DNA of 64,000 nt from Mustelus asterias (lineage: Eukaryota): the NCBI RefSeq assembly GCF_964213995.1, contig NC_135825.1, forward strand, positions 12,338,001-12,402,000. The letters run 5' to 3'. A program made the position numbers and the translations under genes. Positions 11,201 through 42,213 of this stretch are shown one piece after another. Every line of letters starts with the position of its first letter. Position 1 is the stretch's first letter. The notes under the pieces were generated by a model. It searched no databases, was not told the DNA's origin, and saw only the letters and a program-made list of their open reading frames with translations.

Positions 11201-11637
11201 TAGCCCATACTCCAGGGACGGAGGCACAGATGGCTCCAAACCCTCCTGTTTCTAATTCCCAATTTCTGGTGGTGACTGTGGCCACCTTAATAGTTTTGAG
11301 GTGACTTGTAAGTTTCCCTATTCTAGTTTTCTGACCGTCCTGTGTTGGCCAGATTAATTCTCCCTTTCCAGTCTATCAGAATCTCCTTTTCTTTCTTCAG
11401 ATCATTTCCCATTATTGTACCCTCGTTATTTTTGCACACATAAAACCTCATTGGTATGTACAGATTATTTATCTCTACTAAGGTGGTCTCGCTCAGGTAG
11501 GCGGGTGTTTTGTTCTCTCCTATCCCGGTCAGGTAAATCACTTTATTTGTAGTGGGTAAGGGTAGGTCGGTGACAGATATGGACACTCCTGTGTCCACTA
11601 GCATCTCACATTGTCTGCCCCCTACTTGTGCTGACAC
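8283..11637 (-). pseudogene. pol: ERV pro-pol (protease, RT, tether, RNase H, integrase), multiply frameshifted and interrupted
   Basis: LVDTG protease; QYPIKPE, LDVANGFWSLPL, PQGFHNSP and LQYVDD in RT; FFVDGS, AQVAELVAL and NIYTDSRYAFG in RNase H; HCHRCMTC, HLQIDF, WVEAFP, DSDQGTHF, HPQSSGMVE and KWNGPYEV in integrase. Confidence 0.95.
9949..10155 (+). mobile_element. Penelope-like terminal-repeat fragment inserted in ERV pol
   Basis: Matches the arm of the 4586-4967 element and sits between the tether (..DHGDRKR) and RNase H (CVPLITAK..) segments. Confidence 0.8.
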
Positions 11638-11685
11638 GTAAATCCTTCCCTCCTTCTTACCCTTGTGAATGGGGGCTGCAGACCG

Positions 11686-13099
11686 TCAATCTTGCTGACC
11701 CCGGAGGTCCTGTGGTTCCTCCGGTTCTGCTGTGGTCATGGATCGGGTCGGGGGTTTCCCATGCTTATTCCAACACACTGCTTCTGTGTGTCCATATTTA
11801 TTACAGTGGCTGCAATGTTTCCCACTGTTCCCAAATCTGTTCCCTTTCCGTGGAGTCCCGCAATCCCTCGCAAAGTGTCCTTGCCGGCCACAATTGTGGC
11901 AAGTCAGTTTAGACTTTGTTCCCTTCCCATTACTGTAGGCTGCTACTCTTTCCAGCCTTGTTCTTGCCTGGGATTTCTCTTCTCCCGGTACTCCGCAAGC
12001 CCACTCTACCAACTCAGCGTAATCTTGGGACATAATCACTCCCATTTTTAGGATGACCTGGTGAGCACTGGAGAGTCCATCCTTAAAAGCCTGGATGAAC
12101 TCTTGATCCCCTCGACCTGGGTTCCCTTGTCCTGAGCACTCTTGATATATCTGGAACAATTGTTCCCCGTATTCAGAAGCTCCTTCCCATTTTAACTGTT
12201 TTGTTGTGGTAATTCTGCTCCAGTTGGTGGGAGCATTCCCTAATACCCTCTGAATCTCTGCTTTAAACTGGGTGAAGGTTGGGCATCTATCTCCGATGTT
12301 AGGGCGATTGCATGTGTCCACCGTCCCTTGTTATAATCCTGTGCTGGAGGAGCGGTGGGTCCACCTGCTACCTGCCTCCACTTATCCGCTGGACAGGCTG
12401 CCCTGACCAGCTGGTGTACGTCTCTCAGGTGTAATTGGTGTCCTAACCAGATTGTGTCTAATTCTTCCCAGAATTTAGTGTTTGCACTTCTCTCTCACCT
12501 GGGGTGAAGGGTTGATAAGTTGCCTTTGGTCGCGCATTTGTTCCCCCTCGGGGTACTGGCGCTAAGTTGTGTTTTAGCACTTCCCACTCCTCTGAAGGAG
12601 CGGTTGGTCTCTCCTGTGTGGACTCATAAGGAGGTAGAGGAACAGTTTCCCCTCTCCATTGCTTTTCTTCTAAAACCTGGTTTTGCTTTTCCAGTTCCCT
12701 CACTCGGGATTCCAATTCTCTAATCCTTTCCTTATCTTCACTCCACTTCTTAGTAGAGGCGACTACTTGCTCAATTAGACCAGCTAACTCATGTGTTAAC
12801 ATTACTCCTATCTTCTTTGTCTTGTTTCTCTTTTCTTTATCTATCCACTTTCTCTGCTGCTCTAAGGTCTGAGATATATCCCAGCCATCCTTTTGCATTC
12901 TCTTTATTAACTCTTTCCTGTCTGTCATGTAAATTTCAATGAGAGAACCTGCAGGTCCCCTTTTAACTTCATTATCTGCTATTTTGCAGACTTCACTAAC
13001 CCCGGCCACGATTACTCCCTGGTGAAGTGTGCTCTCTACCGTAGGGACTTCGCTACCCCCGGCCACTATTACTACTCTAGCACTGTGTTTCACTACCAT
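11686..13099 (-). pseudogene. gag: ERV gag (frameshifted) with two CCHC zinc knuckles
   Basis: ORFs 12458..13099 and 11686..12321: coiled-coil region, PPY late-domain-like LPPYE, YQPFTPGE, and CHNCGRQGHFARDC plus CSHCNKYGHTEAVC (CX2CX4HX4C x2). Confidence 0.88.
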
Positions 13100-13644
13100 T
13101 ACAGGGTTTCAAGTTATACTCATGGTTTCCACTATTACCACCTCGGCAATGTGCTTCTCCACCGGAGTCCGGTTTAGTTCAGAGTTGATCAAGCTCCTTT
13201 TCCGTCCCGCTTTTCACAACATTGACAGTACAGTTCCCAACTGTCCAAACTTTCATGCAATCAGATGGCAACTCTGCGTTTGTTCACCACGACAGAGTTT
13301 GATGTTAACCGACCTCTGCCACTTATCTCTTTACCCACTTCAATCTCCTGGCCTTCGTGTGGGAGGTTCCTCCTCTTAACAACCGGTCTAAGGCAGGGTT
13401 TTGAGACAGGCACGACCTTGTCCTCTTGTCGGTCAGCACAAGCAACAGTTACTTATCACTATCAGCAGTTAGTACTTATCACTATATCATATACAACAAT
13501 ACTTATTTCTACAAATACCCCTTAAGTTTAACCCCTTAAGTTTAACCCCTTGCAAACTGTATGCTTGACCTTGTCTGACACTCACAGATTCAGTGATCTG
13601 TACCCTGGCTCCGATCGTGGCCAATCGATCTCACCAGTAACAGG

Positions 13645-13663
13645 ATCCATGCTGACTACGCCA
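13645..13663 (-). other. ERV primer binding site, tRNA-Ser type
   Basis: The + strand ..atccatgctgactacgcca closely matches the 3' end of vertebrate tRNA-Ser (..ATCCTGCCGACTACG-CCA). It is separated from the 5' LTR by a 2-nt spacer. Confidence 0.8.
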
Positions 13664-13665
13664 AT

Positions 13666-14293
13666 TGTTGTGGGAAATGTACCACTGAGTCAGGCTTGAA
13701 GGTTTCAAGAATACAGTTTTATTTTAACGAAGCTTTGTGGAGATAAGGCACTAACAAGCAGCAAACCTTCTCTCAATGAGACAATAGGAGCGGTCCATCT
13801 TTATACCCTTTACACAATAGATGGACCGGACATCGAGCCATTATCACATCATTGTAATCAAGTAGGTGATCGATTGTTAACACATCGTTATAGACAAATA
13901 CAGACAGATACAGACATAAGCATGTTAACATCGCATTGTTCTCTGAATGGATACATTTCCTACATCAGTGACCATCGATGGTTTTAGTTTCGGTCTGTTC
14001 ATACAGCAATTTACAGTAATTGGTTTTCCTGCAGTTATCTATTCCCGATCCCACCTGTAGCTAATCTCGTTATCCAACCCTATTGTCTTTATCCTTAAGA
14101 GTGCCTCAAGCCCCGGCTGGCTTCCAGCAGGATTTGATTCCTGCATGTTCAACTTTGAATAGCTGTCTGTCCTTTATGTTTTAATCTCAGGTGTCTCTCT
14201 GTACTGAAAGTCAGTGCCTGTTTAATGTCTCTTTCCCAGGTGACAGTGTGCCAGGCTCTTATGTGTACCCATCTGTATATTTTTCCCCCTTCA
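13666..14293 (-). repeat. ERV 5' LTR (TATA box ~13800, AATAAA ~13720 on minus strand)
   Basis: 628 bp; about 30 substitutions plus small indels versus the 3' LTR by manual count (~95% identical). Confidence 0.95.
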
Positions 14294-15933: not shown

Positions 15934-16257
15934 AACCGGTGTCTGTTCCTGAACTCAGATTTTTATCACCACCAAATGCCACATGTTCTGGGGGCTCAGT
16001 GTCCGTCTCCTGTGAGTCTGTCCAGGGATCACTTCCCATTCAGTACACATGGTACGAAAATACCACATCTGAAGATTCAAAGACCTCTGACACCAATAAA
16101 CTGGATCTACATTGTCAATCCTTCACACAGCAACATCATCAATATTACTGCACAGCCTCAAATAACCAGGGAGAAAAATCCAGTGAAATGGTTACAGTGT
16201 CAGTGATCCACATTTCAGAGAATGATTGCAGTTACTTAACACAAATCAGCAACATTG
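15934..16257 (+). CDS. Gene 1 Ig C2-type exon C1
   Basis: cccacag| acceptor, G|gtaaat donor, 324 nt, phase 1-1. EPVSVPELRF..GGSVSVSCESVQGSLPIQYTWY..YYCTASNNQG, an FcR-like/CD2-type C2 pattern. Confidence 0.9.
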
Positions 16258-17375: not shown

Positions 17376-17684
17376 CTGCAAGTGCATCGTGGGCAAAAAA
17401 TAATGTAACAGGAGTTTTGGGAAGATCGATCACTATAGATTGTCACTATGACAAATTGTCTCAGTCACATGTGAAATATTGGAGTCGTCAGTGCTCTGTT
17501 TTGGTAAAATCAGACGATCCAGATGGACGGCGAGGGAGAATGTCGATCACAGATAACAAGACACAAGGATTTTTTGTTGTTACTATGGAGGATCTTCACT
17601 CAGAAGATGCAGGATGGTACAGCTGCGGTATTGATAAGCCTGGCCTCCTTTCAATATTTCCTGTAAAGCTACAAATATCTGACG
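17376..17684 (+). CDS. Gene 1 IgV exon V2
   Basis: tttcag| acceptor, G|gtacat donor, 309 nt, phase 1-1, open frame (GRSITIDCHY..KYWSRQCS..EDAGWYSCG). Confidence 0.88.
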
Positions 17685-18431
17685 GTACATTGTTCTCAGT
17701 GATTATCTTTATTACTCTTGACTGAAATGTCTGATCGGTGCTTTATCTGGGAGGAGACATTGGCAGCTCCGATATCCCGAGGCTCTGCAGCAGTGCAGAG
17801 TCTGGCAGCTAGAGGGCAGTTAGCACAATGGTTATGTTGGAGGAATTGTAATTCAGAGGCCCAGAGTAATGATCCAGAGAGATGGGGTCAGATTTATAGT
17901 ACCTTGGACACTGCTCTCCTGGCTAAGAAATTTGTATGGACCCCACTCTTGCTCCCGATGCCTGGACAATAGACCTTGACCACTTCCCAGATACTCACCA
18001 GATACTCACCATCAGCTCACTTCTTCCCCTGTTGTAAATTCCTTCAGCTCATTAAACCTCCACACTCGGTTGAAGGCAGACTCCAGTGCTGGTTGCACTG
18101 AGAATGTCGGAATTTATATTTGCAAAAACAAAGGGATTGGGTACAAAAAGACCATTTCAAGCCAGTTTCCCCAATTAACTGTTCCAGTGGCTGCCAGCGG
18201 ATAGCTTCTATCTCCCAGCTTCCGCCCTTTAGATGAGACTTAGGGGGGGAATTTTCCCATTCCGCTCGCCATGGAAATCGTAGCATGCGGGTGATGAACC
18301 ATGCAAACATCGGTTGACGTCGGGCGAGAGTTTCTGGTCTCGCTCGACCGAAGCAGTAAAATCCCATCCTTAACTTGAAACAGTACTCACACTTAAATGT
18401 TAAATGGTACTTATTGTTAAATGTTAAATAC

Positions 18432-19339
18432 TATTGCTAAATTGAGTAGAGTAATTGTAGATTGTTGTTTGCAAGATTGGAAAATGTGAGGGAAAGTCAT
18501 TGCATGGTCCTTTCAAAAAGTGGTGCTTTTACTGTGCTTAGAGAGTTAATAAAAAATGCAAGTACACATAGAGTGCCCAAAATGAAACATTAGTATCAGA
18601 AGGCCAAGGAGCAGTGTTACCAAGGCAACAGTGTGTCAGGCATTTGAATTATTTGAATTCCTCCAATCAATTTGAATTCGGCACTTAGGTACCAAGAACC
18701 TATTAAATTTAAATCCAATGGTTTTGGCAACCTAGGACCAATCCTATTGTGGGGATATTGATATGCCATCACAGGTATAAAAGGAAGGGGGCAGTTTGAC
18801 AAAAGCAGAGAGCAACTGCCAACTGCCAGAATTAAAGCTCTTAGTTCAGCTCTCAGCTCTGAAGAGAGAGAGAGAGAACTGCTGGCTCTCATCGCCTCAT
18901 TGGTGGCTTAAGAGAAAGCACCATCTCAATAGGGAAGATACCAAAGCGGACAGGAGTTCCAGACAGAAGAATCAACTGAATAGGCCCAGAATATTCCTGA
19001 AGACACCAAACCTGGTTATAATTGTGAGAGTGACCAAATTTTAGTTTGTTAATGAGTGGGAATTGTATTTATCTGAAGAGCATTCCATTCGAATCATGTT
19101 TCATTTGGTTTGTTAACAGTTTAGTTCACTTGTTCATTGTGTGTTAGCCACATAAATTGTTACTTGTGACTTTGGAGACGGTGTCTCGGAGTTATTTTGA
19201 TTTAACCACTGAGAGTTGCGAAAGAGCAGAGCGTAACACTTCACAATCACTTTTACAGATTGTGAGGTGAGGTACTCCTCTTTGAGTGGTTAGGTGTTAT
19301 TTCTCAGCGGGTGGGGGGATCCACCTCTGCTTCATAACA
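18432..19339 (+). mobile_element. Solo LTR in V2-C2 intron
   Basis: 908-bp insertion absent from units 5-7, ends in ..cataaca, 4-bp TSD ATAC, TATA box ggtataaaagg at ~18774. Confidence 0.75.
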
Positions 19340-20369
19340 ATACAAGTACAAACAATGGCCGGAATTTCCCAACCTCATCCGTTGACCAGATTCTCCGGTC
19401 CCGCTGCTGTGAATGGAGATTTGGCTCAGCTCCAAATTCTCAGTTCTCACTGGCAGTGGGGGCAGGTTATTTGATATCAGAGAATTCTGGCCAATATTAA
19501 ATTTTTTGCAAGATATTTAAGCCTTTGTCATCTCAGGAAATATCCACAGTCTATCGCAGGTCACACTCCAATGCTTGTCACTAACTAATCTGCTATCATG
19601 AATATCTGTTCTCCTAGACAGCAATCTATAGATACCACCCACAATCGGCCAAGCTCCCACTGCCATCTCACTCTCTCGAACACTCTCCCTTCCTCCTCAC
19701 ACCCTGGATGAGTTATAGAAATATGGTTAATAATATGAAAGTATTTAATTTTTTGGTCATTCTGAAGGTTAAAGTTGTTAAATATTTTTAAATGTGAAAT
19801 GGTACTCACTGTTAAATGTTAAATACAAATACAAACAATGGCTGGAAAACACCAAACGCGTCCTCAGCTGGAATTATCCAGTCCCGCTGCTGCGAATGGA
19901 GATTTGGCTGAGCGCCAAATTCCCTATTCCAACTGGCAGCAGGGGCGGATCACTCGATATCGGAGATTACAGGTCAAGATTAGATATTTTAGAAAGATAT
20001 GTAAGTCTCCATTATCTCAGCAAACATCCACAGTCTATCGCAGGTCGCACTCCACTGCTTGTGACTAACTAATCTGCTATCATGAATGTGTACTGTCCGT
20101 GACAGCAATCAATAGATACTACCTGCATTCGGCCAAGCTCCCACTGCCATCTCTCTCTCTCTCTCTAACACTTTGCCTTCCTCCTCACACCCTTGTTGAG
20201 GTGTAGAAATATTGGTAATATGAAACTATTTAACTCTTTGGTCATCCTAAATTTAAAGTTTTAACGTTTAAATTTGAAGGTTTTTTTAATTAGAGTCACA
20301 AGTAGGCTTAGATTAACACTGCAATGAAGTTCCGGTGAAAATCCGTCAATGATTGTCTTTTTCCCACAG

Positions 20370-20693
20370 AACCCTTGTCTGTTCCTGAACTTAGATTTTT
20401 ATCACCACCAAATGCCACATGTTTTGGGGGCTCAGTGTCCGTCTCCTGTGAGTCTGTCCAGGGATCACTTCCCATTCAGTACACATGGTACGAAAATACC
20501 ACATCTGAAGATTCAAAGACCTCTGACACCAATAAACTGGATCTACATTGTCAATCCTTCAAACAGCAACATCATCAATATTACTGCACAGCCTCAAATA
20601 ACCAGGGAGGAAAATCCAGTGAAATGGTTACAGTGTCAGTGATCCACATTTCAGAGAATGACTGCAGTTATTTAACACAAATCAGCAACATTG
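20370..20693 (+). CDS. Gene 1 Ig C2-type exon C2
   Basis: AG/GT sites, 324 nt, open frame (ORF 20375..). Confidence 0.88.
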
Positions 20694-21362
20694 GTAAATA
20701 TCACTTTAAGTTTCAAAAACCTCAACTAATTTTTAAATTAATGTCTGTCTGAATTGCTCACGGGTTTAGTTCTATTGGTCGTTCAAAGCAATTTTAATAA
20801 TAATAGAATTGCATTTTTTTTCGCTTTTCACATCTTCAGGGCAGTTTTAAAGTCAGTTCTGGTCAATGCTGGAACTGAATCAGAGCCATTGTTGTGATGT
20901 AGGAAGCTCAGCACCAATTTGAGAGCAATAAGCTCCCTCAAGGAGCAATGCGATCATTTGCAGACAATCTGCTGTCTGACAATTGCTGTTTGAGAATATA
21001 ATAATTCCAGGAGCCGGCTGGGAAGGAACCGCGCTTCTATTGTACAAAATGAAAATAAAAAATCACCACACACCTGTGGGTGACCACAACAGGTCCCAAC
21101 CAGGACTAAAAGATTAATGGACCCTCTCAAGGTCTTGCTTTATAAAGGGCATGGTATACAATCTCAATATGGTTGTCTAATTATCAATCTGCAGGGAGCA
21201 CATATTCAATGATACCAACGATCTCAAACAAGGAAGTATCCAATTGCATTAGAAGATGTATTGGAGAGATTTCTCTGAACACAGTGGTAAATCCTATTGA
21301 AATATATCTGTTTGTATGAAGCAATTATTTTCAGTTCAATTTTTGACCTATTGTCTTTTCAG

Positions 21363-21671
21363 CTCCGAGTGCATTGTGGGCAAAAAATAATGTAACAGGA
21401 GTTTTGGGAAGATCGATCACTATAGATTGTCACTATGACAATTTGTCTCAGTCACATGTGAAATCTTGGAGTCGTCAGTGCTCTGTTTTGGTAAAATCAG
21501 ACGATCCAGATGGACGGCGAGGGAGAATGTCGATCACAGATAACAAGACACAAGGATTTTTTGTTGTTACTATGGAGGATCTTCACTCAGAAGATGCAGG
21601 ATGGTACAGCTGTGGTATTGATAAGCCCGGCCTCCTTTCAATATTTCCTGTAAAGCTACAAATATCTGATG
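21363..21671 (+). CDS. Gene 1 IgV exon V3
   Basis: AG/GT sites, 309 nt, open frame (ORF 21374..). Confidence 0.88.
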
Positions 21672-22416
21672 GTACATTGTTCTCAGTGATTATCTTTATT
21701 CCTCTCGACTGAAATGTCTGATCGGTGCTTTATCTGGGAGGAGACATTGACAGCTCCGATATCCCGAGGCGCCGCAGCAGTGCAGAGTCTGGCAGCTAGA
21801 GGGCAGTTAGAACAATGGTTATATTGGAGGAATTGTAATTCAGAGGCCTAGAGTAATGATCCAGAGAGATGGGATCAGATTTATAGCACCATGGACACTG
21901 CTCTCCTGGCTAAGAAATTTGTATGGACCCCAACCTTGCTCCCGATGCCTGGACAATAGACCTTGGCCACTTCCCGGATACTCACCAGATACTCACCAAC
22001 AGCTCACTTCTTCCCCTGTCGTAAATTCCTTCAGCTCATTAAACCTCCACACTCGGTTGAAGGCAGACTCCAGTGCTGGTTGCACTGCGAATGCCTGAAT
22101 TTATATTTTCAAAACAAAGGGATTGGGTACAAAAAGACCATTTCAACCAGTTTCCCCAATTAATTATTTCAGTGGCTGCCAGCGGATAGCTTCTATCTCC
22201 CAGCTTATGCCCTTTAGATGAGACTTAGGGGGGGAATTTTCCCATTCCGCTCGCCATGGAAATCGTAGCATGCAGGTGCTGAACCATGCAAACATCGGTT
22301 GACGTCGGGCGAGAGTTTCTGGTCTCGCTCGACCGAAGCAGTAAAATCCCATCCTAATCTTGAAAAAGTACTCACACTTAAATGTTAAATGGTACTTACT
22401 GTTAAATGTTAAATAC

Positions 22417-23323
22417 TATTGCTAAATTGAGTAGAGTAATTGTAGATTGTTGTTTGCAAGATTGGAAAATGTGAGGGAAAGTCATTGCATGGTCCTTTCA
22501 AAAAGTGGTGCTTTTACTGTGCTTAGAGAGTTAATAAAAAATGCAAGTACACATAGAGTGCCCAAAATGAAACATTTGTATCAGAAGGCCAAGGAGCAGT
22601 GTTACCAAGGCAACAGGGTGTCAGGCATTTGAATTATTTGAGTTCCTCCAATCAATTTGAATTATGCACTTAGGTCCCAAGAACCTGTTAAATTTAAATC
22701 CAATGGTTTTGGCCACCTAGGACCAATCCTATTGTGAGGATATTGATATGCCATCACACGTATAAAAGGAAGGGGGCAGTTTGACAAAAGCAGAGAGCAA
22801 CTGCCAACTGCCAGAATTAAAGCTCTTAGTTCAGCTCTCAGCTCTGAAGAGAGAGAGAGAACTGCTGGCTCTCATCGCCTCATTGATGGCTTAAGAGAAA
22901 GCACCATCTCAATAGGGAAGATACCAAAGCGGACAGAAGTTCCAGACAGAAGAATCAACTGAAAAGGCCCAGAATATTTCTGAAGACACCAAACCTGGTT
23001 AGAATTGTGAGAGTGAGCAAATCTTAGTTTGTTAATGAGTGGGAATTGTATTTATCTGAAGAGCATTCCATTCGAATCATGTTTTATTTGGTTTGTTAAC
23101 AGTTTAGTCAACTTGTTCATTGTTAGTTAGCCACATAAATTGTTACCCTGTGATTTTGGAGACAGTGTCTCAGAGTTATTTTGATTTAACCACTGAGAGT
23201 TGCGAAAGAGCAGAGCGTAACACTTCACAATCACTTTTACAGATTGTGAGGTGAGGTACTCGTCTTTGAGTGGTTAGGTGTTAGTTCTCAGCGGGTGGGG
23301 GGATCCACCTCTGCTTCATAACA
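22417..23323 (+). mobile_element. Solo LTR copy in V3-C3 intron
   Basis: Same element, position and ATAC TSD as 18432-19339. Confidence 0.75.
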
Positions 23324-24352
23324 ATACAAGTACAAACAATGGCCGGAATTTCCCAACCTCATCCATGGACCAGATTCTCCGGTCCCGCTGCTGTGAATGG
23401 AGATTTGGCTCAGCTCCAAATTCTCAGTTCTCACTGGCAGTGGGGGCAGGTTATTTGATATCAGAGAATTCTGGCCAATATTAGATTTTTTGCAAGATAT
23501 TTAAGCCTTTGTCATCTCAGGAAATATCCACAGTCTATCGCAGGTCACACTGCAATGCTTGTCACTAACTAATCTGCTATCATGAATATCTGTTCTCCCA
23601 GACAGCAATCTATAGATACCACCCACAATCGGCCAAGCTCCCACTGCCATCTCACTCTCTCGAACACTCTCCCTTCCTCCTCACACCCTGGATGAGTTAT
23701 AGAAATATGGGTAATAATATGAAAGTATTTAATTTTTTGGTCATTCTGAAGTTTAAAGTTGTTAAATATTTTTAAATGTGAAATGGTACTCACTGTTAAA
23801 TGTTAAATACAAATACAAACAATGGCTGGAAAACACCAAACACGTCCTCAGCTGGAATTATCCAGCCCGCTGCTGCGAATGGAGATTTGGCTGAGCGCCA
23901 AATTCCCTATTCCAACTGGCAGCAGGGGCGGATCACTCGATATCGGAGATTACAGGTCAAGATTAGATTTTTTAGAAAGATATATAAGTCTTCATTATCT
24001 CAGCAAACATCCACAGTCTATCGCAGGTCGCACTCCAATGCTTGTTACTAACTAATCTGCTATCATGAATGTGTACTGTCCGTGACAGCAAGCAACAGAT
24101 ACTACCTGCATTCGGCCAAGCTCCCACTGCCATCTCTCTCTCTCTCTCTAACACTTTGCCTTCCTCCTCACACCCTTGATGAGGTGTAGAAATATTGGTA
24201 ATATGAAACTATTTAATTCTTTGGTCATTCTAAATTTAAAGTTTTAACGTTTAAATTTGAAGGTTTTTTTAATTAGAGTCACAAGTAGGCTTAGATTAAC
24301 ACTGCAATGAAGTTCCGGTGAAAATCCGTCAATGATTGTCTTTTTCCCACAG

Positions 24353-24676
24353 AACCCTTGTCTGTTCCTGAACTTAGATTTTTATCACCACCAAATGCCA
24401 CATGTTCTGGGGGCTCAGTGTCCGTCTCCTGTGAGTCTGTCCAGGGATCACTTCCCATTCAGTACACATGGTACGAAAATACCACATCTGAAGATTCAAA
24501 GATCTCTGACACCAATAAACTGGATCTACATTGTCAATCCTTCACACAGCAACATCATCAATATTACTGCACAGCCTCAAATAACCAGGGAGAAAAATCC
24601 AGTGAAATGGTTACAGTGTCAGTGATCCACATTTCAGAGAATGATTGCAGTTATGTGACACAAATCAGCAACATTG
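24353..24676 (+). CDS. Gene 1 Ig C2-type exon C3
   Basis: AG/GT sites, 324 nt, open frame. Confidence 0.88.
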
Positions 24677-25344
24677 GTAACTATCACTTTAAGTTTCAAA
24701 AATGTCAACTAATTTTTAAATTAATGTCTGTCTGAATTGCTCACGGGTTTAGTTCTATTGGTCGTTCAAAACAATTTTAATAATAATAGAATTGCATTTT
24801 TTTTTGCTTTTCACATCTTCAGGACAGTTTTAAAGTCAGTTCTGGTCAATGCTGGAACTGAATCAGAGCCATTGTTGTGATGTAGGAAGCTCAGTACCAA
24901 TTTGAGAGCAATAAGCTCCCTCAAAGAGCAATGTGATCATGAGCAGACAATCTGCTGTCTGACAATTGCTGTTTGAGAATATAATAATTCCAGGAGCCGG
25001 CTGGGAAGGAACCGCGCTTCTATTGTACAAAATGAAAATAAAGAATCACCACACACCTGTGGTAACCACAACAGGTCCCAACCAGGACTAAAAGATTAAT
25101 GGACCCTCTCAAGGTCTTGCTTTATAAAGCGCATGCTATACAATCTCAATATGGTTGCTTAATTATCAATCTGCAGGGAGCACATATTCTATGATACCAA
25201 CGGTCTCAAACAAGGAAGTATCCAATTGCATTAGAAGATGTATTGGAGAGATTTCTCTGAACACAGTGGTAATTCCAATTGAAATATATCTGTTGGTATG
25301 AAGCAATTATTTTCAGTTCAATTTTTGACCTGTTGTCTTTTCAG

Positions 25345-25653
25345 CTCCGAGTGCATTGTGGGCAAAAAATAATGTAACAGGAGTTTTGGGAAGATCGATC
25401 ACTATAGATTGTCACTATGACAAATTGTCTCAGTCACATGTGAAATATTGGAGTCGTCAGTGCTCTGTTTTGGTAAAATCAGACGATCCAGATGGACGGC
25501 GAGGGAGAATGTCGATCACAGATAACAAGACACAAGGATTTTTTGTTGTTACTATGGAGGATCTTCACTCAGAAGATGCAGGATGGTACAGCTGTGGAAT
25601 TGATAAGCCCGGCCTCCTTTCAATATTTCCTGTAAAGCTACAAATATCTGACG
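25345..25653 (+). CDS. Gene 1 IgV exon V4
   Basis: AG/GT sites, 309 nt, open frame. Confidence 0.88.
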
Positions 25654-26400
25654 GTACATTGTTCTCAGTGATTATCTTTATTCCTCTTGACTGAAATGTC
25701 TGATCGGTGCTTTATCTGGGAGGAGACATTGACAGCTCCGATATCCCAAGGCTCCGCAGCAGTGCAGAGTCTGGCAGCTAGAGGGCAGTTAGAACAATGA
25801 TTATGTTGGAGGAATTGTAATTCAGAGGCCCAGAGTAATGATCCAGAGAGATGGGGTCAGATTTATTGTACCTTGGACACTGCTCTCCTGGCTAAGAAAT
25901 TTGTATGGACCCCACCCTTGCTCCCGATGCCTGGACAATAGACCTTGACCACTTCCCGGATACTCACCAGATACTCACCATCAGCTCACTTCTTCCCCTG
26001 TTGTAAATTCCTTCAGCTCATTAAACCTCCACACTCGGTTGAAGGCAGACTCCAGTGCTGGTTGCACTGAGAATGTCTGAATTTATATTTTCAAAAACAA
26101 AGGGATTGGGTACAAAAAGACCATTTCAAGCCAGTTTCCCCAATTAACTGTTCCAGTGGCTGCCAGCGGATAGCTTCTATCTCCCAGCTTCCGCCCTTTA
26201 GATGAGACTTAGGGGGGGAATTTTCCCATTCCGCTCGCCATGGAAATTGTAGCATGCGGGTGATGAACCATGCAAACATCGGTTGACGTCGGGCGAGAGT
26301 TTCTGGTCTCGCTCGACCGAAGCAGTAAAATCCCATCCTAAACTTGAAACAGTACTCACACTTAAATGTTAAATGGTACTTATTGTTAAATGTTAAATAC

Positions 26401-27313
26401 TATTGCTAAATTGAGTAGAGTAATTGTAGATTGTTGTTTGCAAGATTGGAAAATGTGAGGGAAAGTCATTGCATGGTCCTTTCAAAAAGTAGTACTTTTA
26501 CTGTGCTTAGAGAGTTAATAAAAAATGCAAGTACACATAGAGTGCCCAAAATGAAACATTTGTATCAGAAGGCCAAGGAGCAGTGTTACCAAGGCAACAG
26601 GGTGTCAGGCATTTGAATTATTTGAATTCCTCCAATCAATTTGAATTCGGCACTTAGGTACCAAGAACCTATTAAATTTAAATCCAATGGTTTTGGCAAC
26701 CTAGGACCAATCCTATTGTGGGGATATTGATATGCCATCACAGGTATAAAAGGAAGGGGGCAGTTTGACAAAAGCAGAGAGCAACTGCCAACTGCCAGAA
26801 TTAAAGCTCTTAGTTCAGCTCTCAGCTCTGAAGAGAGAGAGAGAGAGAGAACTGCTGGCTCTCATCGCCTCATTGATGGCTTAAGAGAAAGCACCATCTC
26901 AATAGGGAAGATACCAAAGCGGACAGGAGTTCCAGACAGAAGAATCAACTGAATAGGCCCAGAATATTCCTGAAGACACCAAACCTGGTTATAATTGTGA
27001 GAGTGACCAAATTTTAGTTTGTTAATGAGTGGGAATTGTATTTATCTGAAGAGCATTCCATTCGAATCATGTTTTATTTGGTTTGTTAACAGTTTAGTTA
27101 ACTTGTTCATTGTGTGTTAGCCACATAAATTGTTACCCTGTGACTTTGGATTCGGTGTCTCAGAGTTATTTTGATTTAACCACTGAGAGTTGCGAAAGAG
27201 CAGAGCGTAACACTTCACAATCACTTTTACAGATTGTGAGGTGAGGTACTCCTCTTTGAGTGGTTAGGTGTTAGTTCTCAGCGGGTGGGGGGATCCACCT
27301 CTGCTCCATAACA
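26401..27313 (+). mobile_element. Solo LTR copy in V4-C4 intron
   Basis: Same element, position and ATAC TSD as 18432-19339. Confidence 0.75.
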
Positions 27314-28059
27314 ATACAAGTACAAACAATGGCCGGATTTTCCCAACCTCATCCATGGACCAGATTCTCCGGTCCCGCTGCTGTGAATGGAGATTTGGCT
27401 CAGCTCCAAATTCTCAGTTCTCACTGGCAGTGGGGGCAGGTTATTTGATATCAGAGAATTCTGGCCAATATCAGATTTTTTGCAAGATATTTAAGCCTTT
27501 GTCATCTCAGGAAATATCCATAGTCTATCGCAGGTCACACTGCAATGCTTGTCACTAACTAATCTGCTATCATGAATATCTGTTCTCCCAGACAGCAATC
27601 TATAGATACCACCCACAATCGGCCAAGCTCCCACTGCCATCTCACTCTCTCGAACACTCTCCCTTCCTCCTCACACCCTGGATGAGTTATAGAAATATGG
27701 GTAATAATATGAAAGTATTTAATTTTTTGGTCATTCTGAAGTTTAAAGTTGTTAAATATTTTTAAATGTGAAATGGTACTCACTGTTAAATGTTAAATAC
27801 AAATACAAACAATGGCTGGAAAACACCAAACGCGTCCTCAGCTGGAATTATCCAGTCTCGCTGCTGCGAATGGAGATTTGGCTGAGCGCCAATTTCCCTA
27901 TTCCAACTGGCAGCAGGGGCGGATCACTCGATATCGGAGATTACAGGTCAAGATTAGATTTTCTAGAAAGATATTTAAGTCTCCATTATCTCAGCAAACA
28001 TCCACAGTCTATCGCAGGTCGCACTCCAATGCTTGTTACTAACTAATCTGCTATCATGA

Positions 28060-28235
28060 GTCCAAAGATGTGCGGGTGAGGTTGATTGGCCAGGTTACAA
28101 CTTGCCCCTTAGAGTCCTGAGATGCGTAGGTTAGAGGGATTAGCAGGTAAATATGTGGGGGTAGGGCCTGGGTGGGATTGTGGTTGGTACAGACTCGATG
28201 GGCCGAATGGCCTCCTTCTGCATTGTAGGGTTTCT
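28060..28235 (+). mobile_element. 5'-truncated SINE unique to unit 4
   Basis: tccaaagatgtgcgg..ggcctccttctgcattgtagggtttct matches the 3' half of the HE1-like SINE; flanked by atga repeats; absent from other units. Confidence 0.8.
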
Positions 28236-29009
28236 ATGAATGTCTACTGTCCGTTACAGCAAGCAACAGATACTACCTGCATTTGGCCAAGCTCCCACTG
28301 CCATCTCTCTCTCTCTCTCTAACATTCTCCCTTCCTCCTCACACCATGGATAAGTTATAGAAATATGGGTAATAATATTAAAGTATTTAATTTTTTGGTC
28401 ATTCTGAAGTTTAAAGTTGTTAAATATTTTTAAATGTGAAATGGTACTCACTGTTAAATGTTAAATACAAATACAAACAATGGCTGGAAAACACCAAACG
28501 CGTCCTCAGCTGGAATTATCCAGTCCCGCTGCTGTGAATGGAGATTTGGCTGAGCGCCAAATTCCCTATTCCAACTGGCAGCAGGGGCGGATCTCTCGAT
28601 ATCAGAGATTTCAGGTCAAGATTAGATTTATTCAAAAGATATTTAAGTCTCCATTATCTCAGCAAACATCCACAGTCTATCGCAGGTCGCACTCCAATGC
28701 TTGTTACTAACTAATCTGCTATCATGAATATCTGCTGTCCGTGACAGCAAGCAATAGATACTACCTGCATTCGGCCAAGCTCCCACTGCCATCTCTCTCT
28801 CTCTCTAACACTTTCTCTTCCTCCTCACACCCTGGATGAGGTGTAGAACTATTGGTAACATAAAACTATTGAATTCTTTGGTCATTCTAAATTTAAAGTT
28901 TTAACGTTTAAATTTGAAGGTTTTTTAAATTAGAGTCACAAGTAGGCTTACATTAACACTGCAATGAAGTTCCTGTGAAAAGCCGTCAATGATTGTCTTT
29001 TTCACACAG

Positions 29010-29333
29010 AACCCGTGTCTGTTCCTGAACTTAAATTTCTATCACCACCAAATGCCTCATGTTCTGGGGGCTCAATGTCCGTCTCCTGTGAGTCTGTCCA
29101 GGGATCGCTTCCCATTCAGTACACATGGTATGAAAAGACCCCGTCTGAAGACTCAAAGATCTCTGACACCAATAAACTGGATCTACATTGTCAATCCTTC
29201 ACACAGCAACATCATCAATATTACTGCACAGCCTCAAATCACCAGGGAGAAAAATCCAGTGAAATGGTTACAGTGTCAGTGATCCACATTTCAGAGAATG
29301 ATTGCAGTTATGTGACACAAATCAGCAACATTG
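29010..29333 (+). CDS. Gene 1 Ig C2-type exon C4
   Basis: AG/GT sites, 324 nt, open frame. Confidence 0.88.
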
Positions 29334-30001
29334 GTAACTATCACTTTAAGCTTCAAACAATTCAACTATTTTTTAAATTAATGTCTGTCTGAATTGCTCA
29401 CGGGTTTAGTTCTATTGGTCGTTCAAAACAATTTTAATAAAAATAGAATTCCATTTTTTTTCGCTTCTCACATATTCAGGACAGTTTTAAAGTCCGTTCT
29501 GGTCAATGCTGGAACTGATTCAGAGCCATTGCTGTGATGTAGGAAGCTCAGCACCAATTTGTGAGCAATAAGCTCCCTCAAGGAGCAATGTGATCATGAG
29601 CAGACAATCTGCTGTCTGACAATTGCTGTTTGAGAATATAATAACTCCAGGAGTCGGATGTGAAGGAACCGTGCTTCTATTGTACAAAATGAAAATAAAG
29701 AATTACCACACACCCCTGGTGACCACAACAGGTCCCAACAAGGACTAAAAGATCAATGGACCCTCTCAAGGTCTTGCTTTATAAAGGGCATGGTATACAA
29801 TCTCAATGTGGTTGTCCAATTATCAATCCGCGGGGAGCACATATTCAATGATACCAACGATCTCAAACAAGGAAGTATCCAATTGCAATAGAAGATGTAC
29901 TGGAGAGATTTCTCTGAATACAGTAGTAATTCCTCTTGAAATAAATCTGTTTGTATGAAGCAATTATTTTCAGTTCAATTTTTGACCTCTTGTCTTTTCA
30001 G

Positions 30002-30310
30002 CTTCAAGTGCATTGTGGGCAAAAAATAATGTAACAGGGGTTTTGGGAAGATCGATCACTATAGATTGTCACTATGACAAATTGTCCCAGTCACATGTGA
30101 AATCTTGGAGTCGTCAGTGCTCTGTTTTGGTAAAATCAGACGATCCAGATGGACGGCGAGGGAGAATATCGATCACAGATCACAAGACACAAGGATTATT
30201 TGTTGTTACTATGGAGGATCTTCACTCAGGAGATGCAGGATGGTACAGCTGTGGTATTGATAAGCCCGGCCTCCTTTCTATATTTCCTGTAAAGCTACAA
30301 ATATCTGACG
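30002..30310 (+). CDS. Gene 1 IgV exon V5
   Basis: AG/GT sites, 309 nt, open frame. Confidence 0.88.
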
Positions 30311-31563
30311 GTACATTGTTCTCAGTGATTATCTTTATTCCTCTCGACTGAAATGTCTGATCGGTGCTTTATCTGGGAGGAGACATTGACAGCTCCGTTA
30401 TCCCGAGGCTCCGCAGCAGTGCAGAGTCTGGCAGCTAGAGGGCAGTTAGAACAATGATCATGTTGGAGGAATTGTAATTCAGAGGCCCAGAGTAATGATC
30501 CAGAGAGATGGGATCAGATTTATTGTACCTTGGAACCTGCTCTCCTGGCTAAGAAATTTGTATGGACCCCACCCTTGCTCCCGATGCCTGGACAATAGAC
30601 CTTGACCGCTTCCCGGATACTCACCAGATACTCACCAACAGCTCACTTCTTCCCCTGTTGTAAATTCCTTCAGCTCATTAAACCTCCACAATCGGTTGAA
30701 GGCAGACTCCAGTGCTGATTGCATTGAGAATGTCTGAATTGATATGTTCAAAAACAAATAGACTCAGTACAAAAAGACCAGTTCAAGCCAGTTTCCCGAA
30801 TTAACTATTCCAGTTGCTGCCAGCGGATAGCTTCTATCTCCCAGCTCATGCCCTTTGGATGATACTTCCATCGGAATTTTACTGCCTCACCCGCCACTGT
30901 ATCGGGACTGGTGTGGGGCAGACTCAAGGGTGTTGACCTTGGGCGGGGTATTTTGGTCTCGCTCATTCGAGTCCATAAAACCCCACCCTCAACTTGAAAC
31001 AGTACTGACACTTAAATGTTAAATGGTACTTACTGTTAAATTTTAAATACAAATACAAACAATGGCTGGAATTCACCAAACTCCACAGCTGGAATCATCC
31101 AGTCCCGCTGCTGTGAATGGAGATTTGGCCGAGCGCCAATTTCCCTCTTCCAACTGGCAGCAGGGGCGGATCGCTCGATATCGGAGAATTCAGGTCGAGA
31201 TTAGATTTTTGGAAAGATATTTAAGTCGCCGTTAGCTCAGCAAACATCCACAGTCTATCTCAGGTCACACTCCAATGCTTGTCACCAACTGTCCATGACA
31301 GCAATCAATAGATACTACCTGCATTCGGCCAAGCTCCCACTGCCATCTCTCTCTCTCTCCAACACTTTCCCTTCCTCCTCACACCCTGGATGAGTTGTAG
31401 AAATATTGGTAACATGAAACTATTTAATTTTTTGGTCATTCTAAAGTTCAAAGTTTTGAAGTTTAAAGTTAAACATTTATTCAATCATTGTCACAAGTAG
31501 GCTTACATTAACCCTGCAATGAAGTTTCTCTGAAAATCCGTTCATGATTGTCTTTTCCCACAG

Positions 31564-31887
31564 AACCCGTGTCTGCTCCCGAGCTTAAATTTCTATCACC
31601 ACCAAATGCCTCATGTTCTGGGGGCTCAGTGTCCGTCTCCTGTGAGTCTGTCCAGGGATCATTTCCCATTCAGTACATATGGTATGAAAAGACCCCGTCT
31701 GAAGATTCAAAGGTCTCTGACACCAATAAACTGGATCTACATTGTCAATCCTTCACACAGCAACATCATCAATATTACTGCACAGCCTCAAATCACCAGG
31801 GAGAAAAATCCAGTGAAATGGTTCCAGTGTCAGTGATCAACAGATCAGAGAATGATTGCAGTTATGTGACACAAATCAGCAACATTG
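31564..31887 (+). CDS. Gene 1 Ig C2-type exon C5
   Basis: AG/GT sites, 324 nt, open frame. Confidence 0.88.
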
Positions 31888-32556
31888 GTAAATATCACTT
31901 TAAGCTTCAGAAAATTCAATTAATTTTTAAATTAATGTCTGTCTGAATTGCTCACGGGTTTAGTTCTATTGGTCATTCAAAGAAATTGTAATAAAAATAG
32001 AATTGCATTTATTTTTTACTTTTCTCAACTTCAGGACAGTTTTAAAGTCAGTTCTGGTCAATGCTGGAACTGATTCAGAGCCATTGTTGTGATGTAGGAA
32101 GCTCAGCACCAATTTGTGAGCAAGAAGCTCCTTCAAAGAGCAATGTGATGATGAGCAGACAATCTGCTGTCTGACAATTGTTGTTTGAGAATATAATAAC
32201 TGCAGGAGCCGGCTGTGAAGGAACCGTGCTTTTGTTGTACAATATGAAAATAAACAATAACCACACGCCTGTTGTGACCAGAACAGGTCCCAACCAGGAC
32301 TAAAAGATTAATGGACCCTCTCAGGGTCTTGCTTTATAAAGGGCATGGTATACAATCTCAATATGGTTTGCTAATTATCAATCCACGGGGAGCACATATT
32401 CAATGATACCAACGATCTCAAACAAGGAAGTATCCAATTGCATTGGAAGATGTATTGGAGAGATTTCTCTGAATACAGTTGTAATTCCTATTGAAACATA
32501 TCTGTTTGTATGAAGCAATTATTTTCAGTTCAATTTTTGACCTGTTGTCTTTTCAG

Positions 32557-32865
32557 CTCCAAGTGCATTGTGGGCAAAAAATAAAATAACAGGAATTTTG
32601 GGAAGATCGATCACCATAGATTGTCACTATGACAAATTGTCCCAGTCACATGTGAAATCTTGGAGTCGTCAGTGCTCTGTTTTGGTAAAATCAGATGATC
32701 CAGATGGACGGCGAGGGAGAATGTCGATCACAGATAACAAGACACAAGGATTATTTGTTGTTACTATGGAGGATCTTCGCTCAGGAGATGCAGGATGGTA
32801 CAGCTGTGGTATTGATCAGCCCGGCCTCCTTTCAATGTTTCCTGTAAAGCTACAAATATCTGACG
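32557..32865 (+). CDS. Gene 1 IgV exon V6
   Basis: AG/GT sites, 309 nt, open frame. Confidence 0.88.
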
Positions 32866-34156
32866 GTACATTGTTCTCAGTGATTATCTTTATTACTCTC
32901 GACTGAAATGTCTGATCGGTGCTTTATCTGGGAGGAGACATTGACAGCTCCGATATCCCGAGGCTCCGCAGCAGTGCAGAGTCTGGCAGCTAGAGGGCAG
33001 TTAGCACAATGATTATGTTGGAGGAATTGTAATTCAGAGGCCCAGAGTAATGTTCCAGAGAGATGGGGTCAGATTTATTGCACCTTGGAACCCGCTCTCC
33101 TGGTTAACAAGTTGGCAAGGACCCCACCCTTGCTCCCGATGCCTGGACAATAGACCTTGACCACTTCCCGGATACTCACCAGATACTCACCAACAGCTCA
33201 CTTCTTCCCCTGTAGTAAATTCCTTCAGCTCATTAAACCTCCACACTCGGTTGAAGTCAGACTCCAGTGCTGGTTGCACTGAGAATGTCTGAATTTATAT
33301 GTTCAAAAACAAAGGGACTCGGTTCAAAAAGACCAGTTCAAGCCAGTTTCCCCAATTAACTATTCCAGTTGCTGCCAGTGGATAGCTTCTATCTCCCAGC
33401 TCATGCCCTTTGGATGATATTTACGTCGGAATTTTACTGCCTCGCCTGTCATGGTATCGGAACGGGTTGGGGCAGACAACGGAAATGTCTGTTGACCTTG
33501 GGCGGGATTTTCCTGTCTCGCTCATTGGGGGCCATAAATCCCTGCCCGAGACTTTAAACAGTACTCACACTTAAATGTTAAATGGTACTTACTGTTAAAT
33601 GTTAAATACAAATACAAATAATGGCTGAATTTCACCGAACCTGTCCGCAGCTGGAATCATCCAGTCCCGCTGCTGTGAATGGAGATTTGGCTGAGCGCCA
33701 AATTCCCTATCCCAACTGGCAGCAGGGGTGGATCACTCGATATCAGAGAATTCAGGTCAAGGTTAGATTTTTAGACAGATATTTTAAGTCTACGTTATCT
33801 CAGCAAACATCCACAGTCTATCTCAGGTCACACTCCAATGCTTGTCACTCACTAATCTGCAATCATAAATATCTGCTGTCCATGACAGCAATCAACGGAT
33901 ACTACCTGCATTCGGCCAAGCTCCCACTGCCATCTCTCTCTCTCTCTCTCTCTAAAACTTCCCCTTCCTCCTCACACCCTGGATGAGGTGTAGAATTATT
34001 GGTACTATGAAACTAATTAATTTTTTGGTCATTCTAAAGTTTAAAGTTTTAAAGTTTAAAGTTAAAGCTTTTTAAAATTTGTGTCTCAAGTAGGCTTACA
34101 TTAACACTGCAATGAAGTTCTGTGAAAATCCGTTCATGGTTGTCTTTTTCCCACAG

Positions 34157-34480
34157 AACCCGTGTCTGTTCCTGAACTTAAATTTCTATCACCACCAAAT
34201 GCCTCATGTTCTGGGGGCTCAGTGTCCCTCTCCTGTGAGTCTGTCCAGGGATCACTTCCCATTCAGTACACATGGTATGAAAAGACTCCGTCCGAAGATT
34301 CAAAGATCTCTGACACCAATAAACTGGGTCTACATTGTCAATCCTTCAAACAGCAACATCATCAATATTACTGCACAGCCTCAAATAACCAGGGAGAAAA
34401 ATCCAGTGAAATGGTTACAGGGTCAGTGATCCACATTTCAGAGAATGATTGCAGTTACTTAACACAAATCAGCAACATTG
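34157..34480 (+). CDS. Gene 1 Ig C2-type exon C6
   Basis: AG/GT sites, 324 nt, open frame. Confidence 0.88.
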
Positions 34481-35150
34481 GTAAATATCACTTTAAGCTT
34501 CAAAAGATTCAACTAATTTTTAAATTAATGTCTGTCTGAATTGCTCACGGGTTTTGTTCTATTGGTCGTTCAAAGCAATTTTAATAAAATTAGAATTGCA
34601 TTTATTTTTCACTTTTCACAGCTTCAGGACAGTTTTAAAGTCAGTTCTGGTCAATGCTGGAACTGATTCAGAGCCATTGTTGTGATGTAGGAAGCTCAGC
34701 ACCAATTTGTGAGCAATAAGCTCCCTCAGGGAGCAATGTGATGATGAGCAGACAATCTGCTGTCTGACAATTTGCTGTTTGAGAATACAATAACTCCAGG
34801 AGCCGGCTGTGAAAGAACTGTGCTTCTATTGTACAAAATGAAAGTAAAGAATTACCACATGCCTGTGGTGAGCACTACAGGTCCCAACCTGGACTAAAAG
34901 ATTAATGGAACCACTCAAGGTCTTGCTTTATAAAGGGCTTGGGATACAATCTCAATATGGTTGTCTAATTATCAATCCGCAGGGAGCACATATTCAATAT
35001 GCCCAACGATATCAAACAAGGAAGTATCCAATTGCATTAGAAGATGTATTGGAGAGATTTCTCTGAACACAGTGGTAAATCCTATTGAAATATATCTGTT
35101 TGTATTGAGCAATTATTTTCAGTTCAATTTTTGACCTGTTGTCTTTTCAG

Positions 35151-35459
35151 CTCCAAGTGCATTGTGGGCAAACAATAATGTAACAGGAGTTTTGGGAAGA
35201 TCGATCACTATAGATTGTCACTATGACAAATTGTCTCAGTCACATGTGAAATATTGGAGTCGTCAGTGCTCTGTTTTGGTAAAATCAGACGATCCAGATG
35301 GACGGCGAGGGAGAATGTCGATCACAGATAACAAGACACAAGGATTATTTGTTGTTACTATGGAGGATCTTCGCTCAGGAGATGCAGGATGGTACAGCTG
35401 TGGAATTGATAAGCCCGGCCTCCTTTCAATATTTCCTGTAAAGCTACAAATATCTGATG
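35151..35459 (+). CDS. Gene 1 IgV exon V7
   Basis: AG/GT sites, 309 nt, open frame. Confidence 0.88.
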
Positions 35460-36743: not shown

Positions 36744-37067
36744 AACCCGTGTCTGTTCCTGAACTTAAATTTTTATCACCACCAAATGCCTCATGTTCTG
36801 GGGGCTCAGTGTCCGTCTCCTGTGAGTCTGTCCAGGGATCACTTCCTATTCAGTACACATGGTATGAAAAGACCCTGTTTGAAGATTCAAAGATCTCTGA
36901 CACCAATAAACTGGATCTACATTGTCAATCCTTCAAACAGCAACATCATCAATATTACTGCACAGCCTCAAATAACCAGGGAGGAAAATCCAGTGAAATG
37001 TTGAACATTTCAGTGATCAACGGATTAGGGCAGAATTGCAGTTATGTGACACAGATCAACAACGTTG
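36744..37067 (+). CDS. Gene 1 Ig C2-type exon C7 (membrane-proximal, divergent 3' end)
   Basis: AG acceptor, consensus G|gtaagt donor, 324 nt; ends EMLNISVINGLGQNCSYVTQINNV. Confidence 0.9.
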
Positions 37068-39406: not shown

Positions 39407-39485
39407 TCGGACCTGAAAATTCTTCTGAAGTTTTAACAGTATCGCCAACACATTCGTCAATTCCAAACTCCAAACCTGCTGAAAG
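39407..39485 (+). CDS. Gene 1 stalk exon (VGPENSSEVLTVSPTHSSIPNSKPAE-S)
   Basis: ttccttctttcag| acceptor, AG|gtacac donor. Ser/Thr/Pro-rich. Phase 1 in, phase 2 out, which matches the TM exon. Confidence 0.8.
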
Positions 39486-42124: not shown

Positions 42125-42213
42125 TCTGATTTACATTGTGCTCGGGGTGCTGGGGGCCATTCTTGTGGTGTTCGCTGTTTCTCTACTTTTGTACCGGAGG
42201 CGAATCGACAAGG
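42125..42213 (+). CDS. Gene 1 transmembrane exon (SLIYIVLGVLGAILVVFAVSLLLYRRRIDK)
   Basis: cacag| acceptor, G|gtgagt donor; about 23 hydrophobic residues with no charged residue, followed by an RRR stop-transfer. Confidence 0.9.

Follow-up and report, generated by a model that had tools for sequence, protein, structure and literature searches.

A seven-unit V–C2 array in a shark modular domain immune-type receptor gene, likely built by unequal crossing-over

PMC3031540 describes the MDIRs, or modular domain immune-type receptors, as a multigene family whose members vary in domain number and are activating or inhibitory. In clearnose skate, MDIR3 (ABC86797) is arranged V-V-C-V-C and MDIR5 V-C-V-C, and their inner V domains start VSGA(V/L)WA; in MDIR3 these are read in order. 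Here we analyzed a stretch of 64,000 nucleotides from the shark Mustelus asterias (NC_135825.1, positions 12,338,001 to 12,402,000; hereafter the window). By sequence similarity, the gene in the window is a shark MDIR with CD300/pIgR-like V and C2 domains. Its NCBI model P0001 aligned with skate MDIR3 over about 425 aa at 55–57% identity (E 2e-155), and a family-profile search retrieved both MDIR3 and MDIR5. The skate receptors are alike in their CD300/pIgR-like V and C2 domains, in modular order and in a near-identical leader, and MDIR3 also has a tyrosine-motif tail. Consistent with the varying domain number of MDIRs, sister genes hold 1–11 units in the cluster map, and the window gene combines two ITIM-type motifs with an uncharged membrane span. 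It differs from the skate MDIRs in size (seven units, and 11 in a sister gene, versus four to five domains), in its shortened tail, and in its inner V domains, a shortened W-S subtype found here only in galeomorph shark models.

Among mammalian receptors, CD300 has one V domain and pIgR has V domains only. CD300/pIgR gave the best PDB matches by sequence and fold: V3 matched pIgR, CD300, NKp44 and TREM, and a fold search returned only pIgR and general Ig chains. V1, a V-set domain with YWC...C, retains the second C-C′ cysteine pair of these proteins, whereas the inner V domains V2–V7 lack one cysteine of the C-C′ disulfide; unlike in CD300 and pIgR, V alternates with C2 in the window gene. Its ITIM-type tail resembles that of inhibitory CD300. 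We consider it fairly probable that this MDIR gene arose from a two-unit ancestor and is spliced mainly in order, which would yield an inhibitory receptor whose long repetitive stem carries one variable tip.

Exon map of the window gene

Joining 19 exons in sequence gave a product of 1609 aa with one stop, at the very end (Table 1); canonical donors and open frames were found in 19 of 19 exons. The first-pass annotation had assigned phase 1-1 to all Ig exons, and this was confirmed in 14 of 14, the seven V and seven C exons each being open and divisible by three. Ig exons, as a rule, have this phase. The ITIM tail that it had described is present as well, with two motifs of this type. V2–V7 are each 309 nt long and lie directly 3′ of a TTTTCAG acceptor. 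V1 has two in-frame acceptors, so placed that the exon starts at 3722 after GAG or at 3728 after CAG.

No leader homolog was found between 996 and 55147, and no membrane exon lies between units; a separate gene per unit was therefore rejected. The NCBI annotation mislabels it, splitting it into two models, P0001 and P0043, under the name 'titin-like' plus a partial model. In NCBI models P0001 and P0075, the exons are joined in order.

Table 1 Coding exons and other features of the window gene (positions within the window)
Feature	Position	Strand	Remarks
Leader exon MWILILVIFSLP	959..995	+	Phase-1 donor; no copy in array interior
Intron block before V1	3617..3721	+	Homologous to block before every V exon of cluster
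V1 exon	3722..4042	+	First-position type, both C-C′ cysteines; Pfam V-set
Provirus-like insertion, V1–C1 intron	6015..14293	-	LTRs 6015–6651 and 13666–14293
C1 exon	15934..16257	+	First-C type, both flanks
V2 exon	17376..17684	+	Inner type: 4-residue deletion, W-S instead of W-C
C2 exon	20370..20693	+	Hybrid flanks
V3 exon	21363..21671	+	Inner type
C3 exon	24353..24676	+	Hybrid flanks
V4 exon	25345..25653	+	Inner type
C4 exon	29010..29333	+	Hybrid flanks
V5 exon	30002..30310	+	Inner type
C5 exon	31564..31887	+	Hybrid flanks
V6 exon	32557..32865	+	Inner type
C6 exon	34157..34480	+	Hybrid flanks
V7 exon	35151..35459	+	Inner type
C7 exon	36744..37067	+	Terminal-type C exon
Stalk exon	39407..39485	+	Phase 1 in, phase 2 out; also in NCBI model P0043
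Transmembrane exon	42125..42213	+	Hydrophobic stretch without charged residue
First cytoplasmic exon	43766..43818	+	
Last coding exon	46310..46444	+	IVYASV (46334) and VTYATL (46424), then stop TAG (46442–46444)

Origin of the array and of the inner V exon starts

The first-pass annotation had also noted that about 100 nt before each inner V exon are homologous to the leader–V1 intron. Indeed, the 105 nt before V2–V7 are 70–77% identical to it, whereas random pairs averaged 49%, with a 99th percentile of 57%. The 128 nt 3′ of the V exons are even more alike (82–83%), indicating that the homology belongs to a block spanning the whole V exon. The same flanking block occurs at first-position V exons of other subfamilies; together with the downstream flank, this rules out upstream intron homology as a special trait. 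The near flanks of the inner V exons differ by means of 0.064 and 0.044, versus 0.09–0.18 in distant intron, a conservation equally consistent with gene conversion and with splice-regulatory elements.

The flanks of C2–C6 are of two kinds: upstream they are of last-C type (0.85–0.91), downstream of first-C type (0.84–0.88). Such hybrids suggest that a two-unit ancestor underwent unequal crossing-over, by which the seven V–C2 pairs were likely built. In an old duplication, a first-type V exon, N-terminal codons included, would have been placed behind a C exon along with ~100 nt of the intron at either end. This V copy would then have lost four residues and one disulfide cysteine, and mispairing of the two similar C exons would have repeatedly copied a segment that begins in the 3′ part of C, takes in the inner V and ends in the 5′ part of the following C. 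In the inner V, three to four initial codons would now be a drifting linker ahead of an A strand formed by LWA. V1 would be the likely recognition site, diversifying between genes, and the inner units would likely set reach or avidity.

Across 662 kb, all 30 inner V exons sit after a C exon and none of the 30 directly follows a leader, against 20 leader-like exons in the same interval. Multi-unit RefSeq models may be fusions of neighbors, as P0002, P0003 and P0005 are by the cluster map, and such models did not serve as sole evidence. Concerted evolution within one gene was rejected: in a tree of the 30 inner V exons, no branch sets the window units apart from the rest, the tree being of poor resolution, with 5 of its 25 inner branches starred.

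V2–V7 differ from each other by 2–11 of 103 aa (89–98% identity), with a pN/pS of 0.43; the corresponding values were 0.53 for 26 inner V exons and 1.52 for V1 of six sister genes. In these six genes, introns are 95–99% identical and V1 exons only 87–90%. The 10 genes of the subfamily agree at 99–100% in their leader region. By these measures, V2–V7 are under purifying selection and V1 diversifies between genes.

The starts of V2–V7 had been given as A(P/A/S)SA(L/S)WA followed by KNNV, equivalent to GALQA of V1. The first part stands, with (A)ASASWA, (A)PSALWA in four exons or (A)SSALWA; KNNV does not follow in V6 (KNKI) or V7 (NNNV). V1 does have a counterpart, but the V1 acceptor that shares homology with those of V2–V7 is found 6 nt farther upstream (TGAG/TTTCAG/G), so that the equivalent peptide is VSGALQA. 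LWA (query residues 4–6 of V3) aligns with I4-F5-G6 of mature pIgR chains in PDB, and hence only the first three to four residues of the inner V are signal-tail equivalents. In two AlphaFold models of low confidence (mean pLDDT 44.6 and 55.5), L-W(-A) belongs to a strand, with coil just before it. Taken with the alignment, these models suggest that LWA forms the A strand of the domain.

Among the 30 inner V exons, where counts are small and the copies non-independent, 13 distinct variants fell in the first 20 nt versus 76 in the other 289 nt (p=0.007), and the first 20 nt did not differ in variation from flanking intron (p=0.29). Nine of the variants in this segment are nonsynonymous and three synonymous. 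LWA itself has four single nonsynonymous variants, so constraint on the A strand is invisible at this time scale. Of 21 first-type V exons, 20 carry SGA, a place at which the 30 inner V exons show six different triplets, and inner-type V starts in other sharks read DPNV, DPNL, GSTV or GSGV. Preservation of the tail by selection was rejected on the variant counts. The idea that the tails were retained as a cassette-diversity system was not upheld: they vary like intron DNA, V2–V7 are near-identical, and in skate MDIR3 the inner V domains start alike and are read in order. The tails thus read most likely as leftovers of copying, not diversity machinery. Under the (-3,-1) rule, proline in APSA would disfavor cleavage before A or L on a leader–inner V product; V1 spliced from its second acceptor (LP-GAL) would be disfavored equally.

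Splicing and alternative readings

Leader-to-Vn and Cn-to-stalk joins are in frame, as had been proposed, since every V and C exon is phase 1-1 and divisible by three. In-frame skipping, including leader-to-inner-V, probably occurs at some level, much as it does elsewhere in genes with symmetric Ig exons, with no dedicated choice system.

Regulated skipping of whole units (leader–Vn, Cn–stalk and inner pairs) might tune ectodomain length or avidity between 1 and 7 units, not specificity. We judge this rather unlikely. Besides the in-frame joins, it is favored by automatic RefSeq models showing Ig-exon skipping in eight relative genes, with leader-to-V2 in one of the eight (isoforms X1/X2 of a Heptranchias gene, models P0058/P0081/P0082), and by the conserved ~100-nt V flanks. 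The first V1 acceptor, moreover, is weakened to GAG in the window gene (CAG in most sister genes) while the inner acceptors are consensus, and in one sister gene two stops interrupt an inner V, so that this exon would have to be left out to give a full-length protein. The tally of isoforms covers 30 hand-picked model pairs, gene identity being inferred from identical shared sequence: 11 pairs, from the eight genes, differ by whole Ig exons; P0025/P0078, P0091/P0108 and P0116/P0166 were dropped as probably different genes despite Ig-sized gaps; and the remaining 16 differ in tails, starts or few residues. However, the skips are mostly of single exons (V in six of the eight genes, C in two), and one leader-to-C skip disregards the tail logic. 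In the Heptranchias gene, V1 and V2 are the same over the first 30 residues, where short reads may be misplaced, and length already differs between genes at the DNA level. It seems quite unlikely to us that, in long-array shark MDIR genes, regulated leader-to-inner-V joining and unit skipping would equip different cells with receptors of 1–7 units (or as many as 11) and exchange the V1 tip, which evolves fast, for a V that is conserved and disulfide-reduced, as a splice-tuned switch of length and specificity with one inhibitory tail.

Alternatively, the window gene could be decaying or only partly transcribed, its array a by-product of an unstable cluster. The 8.3-kb provirus-like insertion, with LTRs 93.7% alike and a 5-bp target duplication, is absent from the sister locus L061. 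Together with the weakened V1 acceptor, the shortened tail, a stalk Cys replaced by Ser (GPENSS versus GPENSC or GPENPC in sister models), the split NCBI annotation and several sister genes without a membrane exon in the cluster map, it would suit such decay. Nevertheless, all exons are open with canonical donors, the inner V exons show the low pN/pS given above, the insertion is antisense to the gene, and the tail stop is common to three long-array genes with both motifs retained. We therefore hold decay to be distinctly improbable.

A choice of the Dscam or protocadherin kind, in which the leader is joined to a single V cassette out of seven, so that N-terminal specificities differ while the ITIM tail stays constant, is feasible in frame, and the retained N-terminal codons and the one leader-to-V2 model agree with it. 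We find it very improbable: the cassettes are near-identical, under apparent purifying selection and short of a conserved cysteine, and their tails drift. Neither did the likeness to clustered-exon loci survive, for the V exons alternate with C exons instead of being clustered, no leader per cassette was found between 996 and 55147, and MDIR3 has the same anatomy, read in order. An assembly artefact can be discounted almost entirely, since, long and highly similar as the repeats are, and almost identical as the four 2-unit sister genes G–J are, the window units differ by 3–10%, have unequal periods (3987, 3982, 4657, 2555 and 2594 bp) and are in some cases nearest to units of other genes.

Comparison with known systems

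A literature search, with subscription journals mostly outside its scope, found no published account of such arrays or their splicing. Dscam1 and the clustered protocadherins likewise have tandem similar exons before a constant tail. Unlike them, the window gene has no clustered alternatives at one position and no promoter or leader per exon, and its inner V exons are near-identical. Regulated leader-to-Vn splicing, if true, would add splice-based receptor tuning to the immunity of cartilaginous fish.

An MDIR array grown from two units and spliced mainly in order, the reading that we favor, would be a clean example of change in shark innate receptors, in which the tip diversifies between genes and the stem extends from 2 to 7–11 units by unequal crossing-over. 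It would be of use to comparative immunologists and invokes no new mechanism. CR1 with its long homologous repeats, LPA with kringle IV-2, and DMBT1 are genes with intragenic copy-number variation of exon blocks. In these genes, ectodomain length likewise changes via unequal crossing-over of an exon–intron block; their domains are unrelated to those of the window gene, in whose cluster variation in unit number is known between paralogs.

Identity and layout of the receptor gene

The window contains a single plus-strand gene, and ordered joining of its exons yielded 1609 residues with the C-terminus ...IVYASV...VTYATL-stop. The stop directly after VTYATL (window 46442–46444) is common to three long-array genes (6, 7 and 11 units); one two-unit gene reads past this position to another tyrosine motif. 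V3 matched Pfam V-set and the chains of pIgR, CD300, NKp44 and TREM, and the C exons matched Ig_2/Ig_3. The NCBI model P0001 (Mustelus asterias, labelled "titin-like") follows the exons of this gene in order, starting at the leader and reaching C6 before a spurious end, and P0043 represents V7 through the tail. A profile of the family picked up MDIR3 and MDIR5 of skate, entries that we take to be cloned cDNAs, and MDIR3 showed 55–57% identity to P0001 across about 425 residues. The domain orders are V-V-C-V-C in MDIR3 and V-C-V-C in MDIR5, and their inner V domains start with VSGA(V/L)WA; such a start is therefore shared by named members and is a trait of the family. By the tests run, the gene is an MDIR (modular domain immune-type receptor of cartilaginous fish) and works like one. 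Passages of PMC3031540 describe MDIRs as a multigene family of receptors, activating or inhibitory, that resemble CD300, TREM and pIgR.

Features mapped in the window
Feature	Position	Strand	Basis
Leader exon	959–995	+	exon map
V1 exon	3722/3728–4042	+	exon map
C1 exon	15934–16257	+	exon map
Six more V-C pairs after C1	V2 from 17376 to C7 end 37067	+	exon map
Stalk exon	39407–39485	+	exon map
Membrane exon	42125–42213	+	exon map
Two cytoplasmic exons, 3' of membrane exon		+	exon map
Provirus-like element	6015–14293	-	LTR pair 93.7% alike, 5-bp target duplication

The provirus-like element, antisense within the V1-C1 intron, retains broken gag, protease, RT, RNase H, integrase and env-like pieces (Pfam), and its site is empty at the sister locus L061. 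The same intron contains a palindromic repeat (4582–4971), with a partial copy (9949–10156) inside the pol region of the element. An AT-rich minus-strand stretch (about 59500–63250), in which the open frames are broken, is probably another mobile element; it includes a 12-bp tandem repeat (about 62860–62965). Every inner V (V2–V7) has an unpaired Cys and every C exon (C1–C7) has five; Cys pairing between domains may occur, the structure models being too weak to tell.

Start and origin of the inner V exons

All Ig exons (14/14) are open and of phase 1-1, A(P/A/S)SA(L/S)WA was read at the start of all six inner V exons, and the 105 nt before them are 70–77% identical to the pre-V1 intron (random pairs, 49%); the sequence facts of the first-pass annotation are therefore real. 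The inner start pairs with V1 in another register than the one given there: the V1 counterpart of the inner acceptor is an AG lying six bases 5' of the acceptor chosen there, which makes VSGALQA (V1) and APSALWA (inner V) the peptides that match. The V1 acceptors (3716–3727) are in-frame, tandem and 6 nt apart, with VS in or out; the first is weakened to GAG in this gene, and both are used in RefSeq isoforms of several relatives. The 128 nt 3' of the V exons are likewise 82–83% identical. The homology thus forms a block surrounding the exon, with background identity reached farther out on either side, and the same block was found around first-type V exons of other subfamilies.

The proposal that inner tails are retained as signal-peptide tails was not borne out. 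Across 30 inner V exons, 13 distinct variants fell in the first 20 nt and 76 in the remaining 289 nt (p=0.007); the rate in the first 20 nt did not differ from that of the flanking intron (p=0.29), the counts being small and the copies related to each other. Codon changes there comprised 9 nonsynonymous and 3 synonymous. Computed without four near-identical copies, the mean pairwise difference was 0.084 for the tail and 0.042 for the remainder of the exon, against 0.09–0.18 for distant intron. LWA aligned to I4-F5-G6 of mature pIgR, and in two AlphaFold models, both weak (mean pLDDT 44.6 and 55.5), L-W(-A) lies within a strand and the residues before it are coil. LWA itself shows four single changes among inner V exons, which counts against reading it as an A-strand behind a drifting tail. 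SGA is kept in 20/21 first-type V exons, at 69% mean protein identity; the inner type starts with APSA in M. asterias and with DPNV, DPNL, GSTV or GSGV in other sharks. A leader-inner V product would probably still be targeted because the hydrophobic core sits in the leader exon; this gives no indication of the purpose of the tail.

Typing of the C-exon flanks against a two-unit sister gene gave first-C flanks both upstream and downstream of C1, and a last-C upstream flank and 3' end for C7. C2–C6 are hybrid, with last-C upstream (0.85–0.91) and first-C downstream flanks (0.84–0.88), the trace expected of unequal crossing-over within two similar C exons. Such an exchange would copy the piece holding the inner V; all inner V exons would then share tail, phase and flanks because each copies one exon. 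Their tree is shallow and weakly resolved, and some units are closest to units of other genes.

V diversity and exon skipping

Inner cassettes as a source of V diversity found no support: V2–V7 differ pairwise at 2–11 of 103 residues, with pN/pS of 0.43 (0.53 for 26 inner V), versus 1.52 for V1 of six sister genes. The V1 exon of sister genes is 87–90% identical and its flanking introns 95–99%. Diversity lies between the V1 exons of different genes rather than among the inner V exons.

We compared Ig-exon content in 30 hand-picked RefSeq model pairs from relatives, which are automatic models on near-identical repeats. Whole Ig exons differed in 11 pairs, from 8 genes: inner V was skipped in six and inner C in two, and the leader was joined to C in one and to V2 in one (Heptranchias, where V1 and V2 have the same 30 starting residues). 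These models point to skipping of symmetric exons in general; the leader-inner V join is included in this skipping, which is not built around it. A regulated splice-tuning system in MDIR arrays retains a low probability. Alternative exons commonly have conserved flanks, and the sequence adjoining inner V exons is conserved to the same degree as the exon, leaving room for regulation; gene conversion accounts for this equally well. Room is also left by the 11-unit sister gene, in which one inner V (G000:C25:12044424, L019) carries two adjacent stops; these may reflect obligatory skipping or decay. At L008 (G000:C25:11931394), NCBI P0005 joins the first V straight to an inner V over an intact C exon.

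The genomic cluster and known systems

Own-genome search gave 81 candidates, of which 60 were V-like matches; 59 of these 60 lie within 11.87–12.78 Mb of contig C25. Mapping of 662 kb of this region located 20 leader-like exons along with 51 V exons, of which 30 are of the inner and 21 of the first type. A C exon precedes 30/30 inner-type V exons and a leader directly precedes 0/30. Same-subfamily sister genes have 1, 2 (five copies), 3, 6, 7 (the window gene) or 11 V exons. The five two-unit genes lie in tandem ~37 kb apart (G000:C25:12100000-12272000); four are almost identical, membrane and tail exons were mapped in only one, and the chimeric NCBI models P0002 and P0003 are fusions of them. 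The next gene has two leader exons in tandem, at window 55195–55231 and 58235–58271, and its first V lies past the end of the window; one sister gene likewise has two leaders.

In the inner type, a four-residue deletion takes out the first C-C' cysteine. Pattern search of 170 fetched proteins found 28 inner-type V domains, N-terminal only in P0043, which is 5'-partial and lacks a leader. Models of Carcharodon, Cetorhinus and Hemiscyllium likewise have inner-type V after C1, so its internal position probably dates back to the galeomorph ancestor.

The gene adds to the known MDIR receptors; among the papers searched, no account of MDIR arrays of this kind was found. The suggested clustered-exon architecture fails on two testable Dscam/protocadherin features, divergent alternatives per position and an own promoter or leader per exon. 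In how its length changes, the gene is like the repeat blocks of CR1, LPA and DMBT1.
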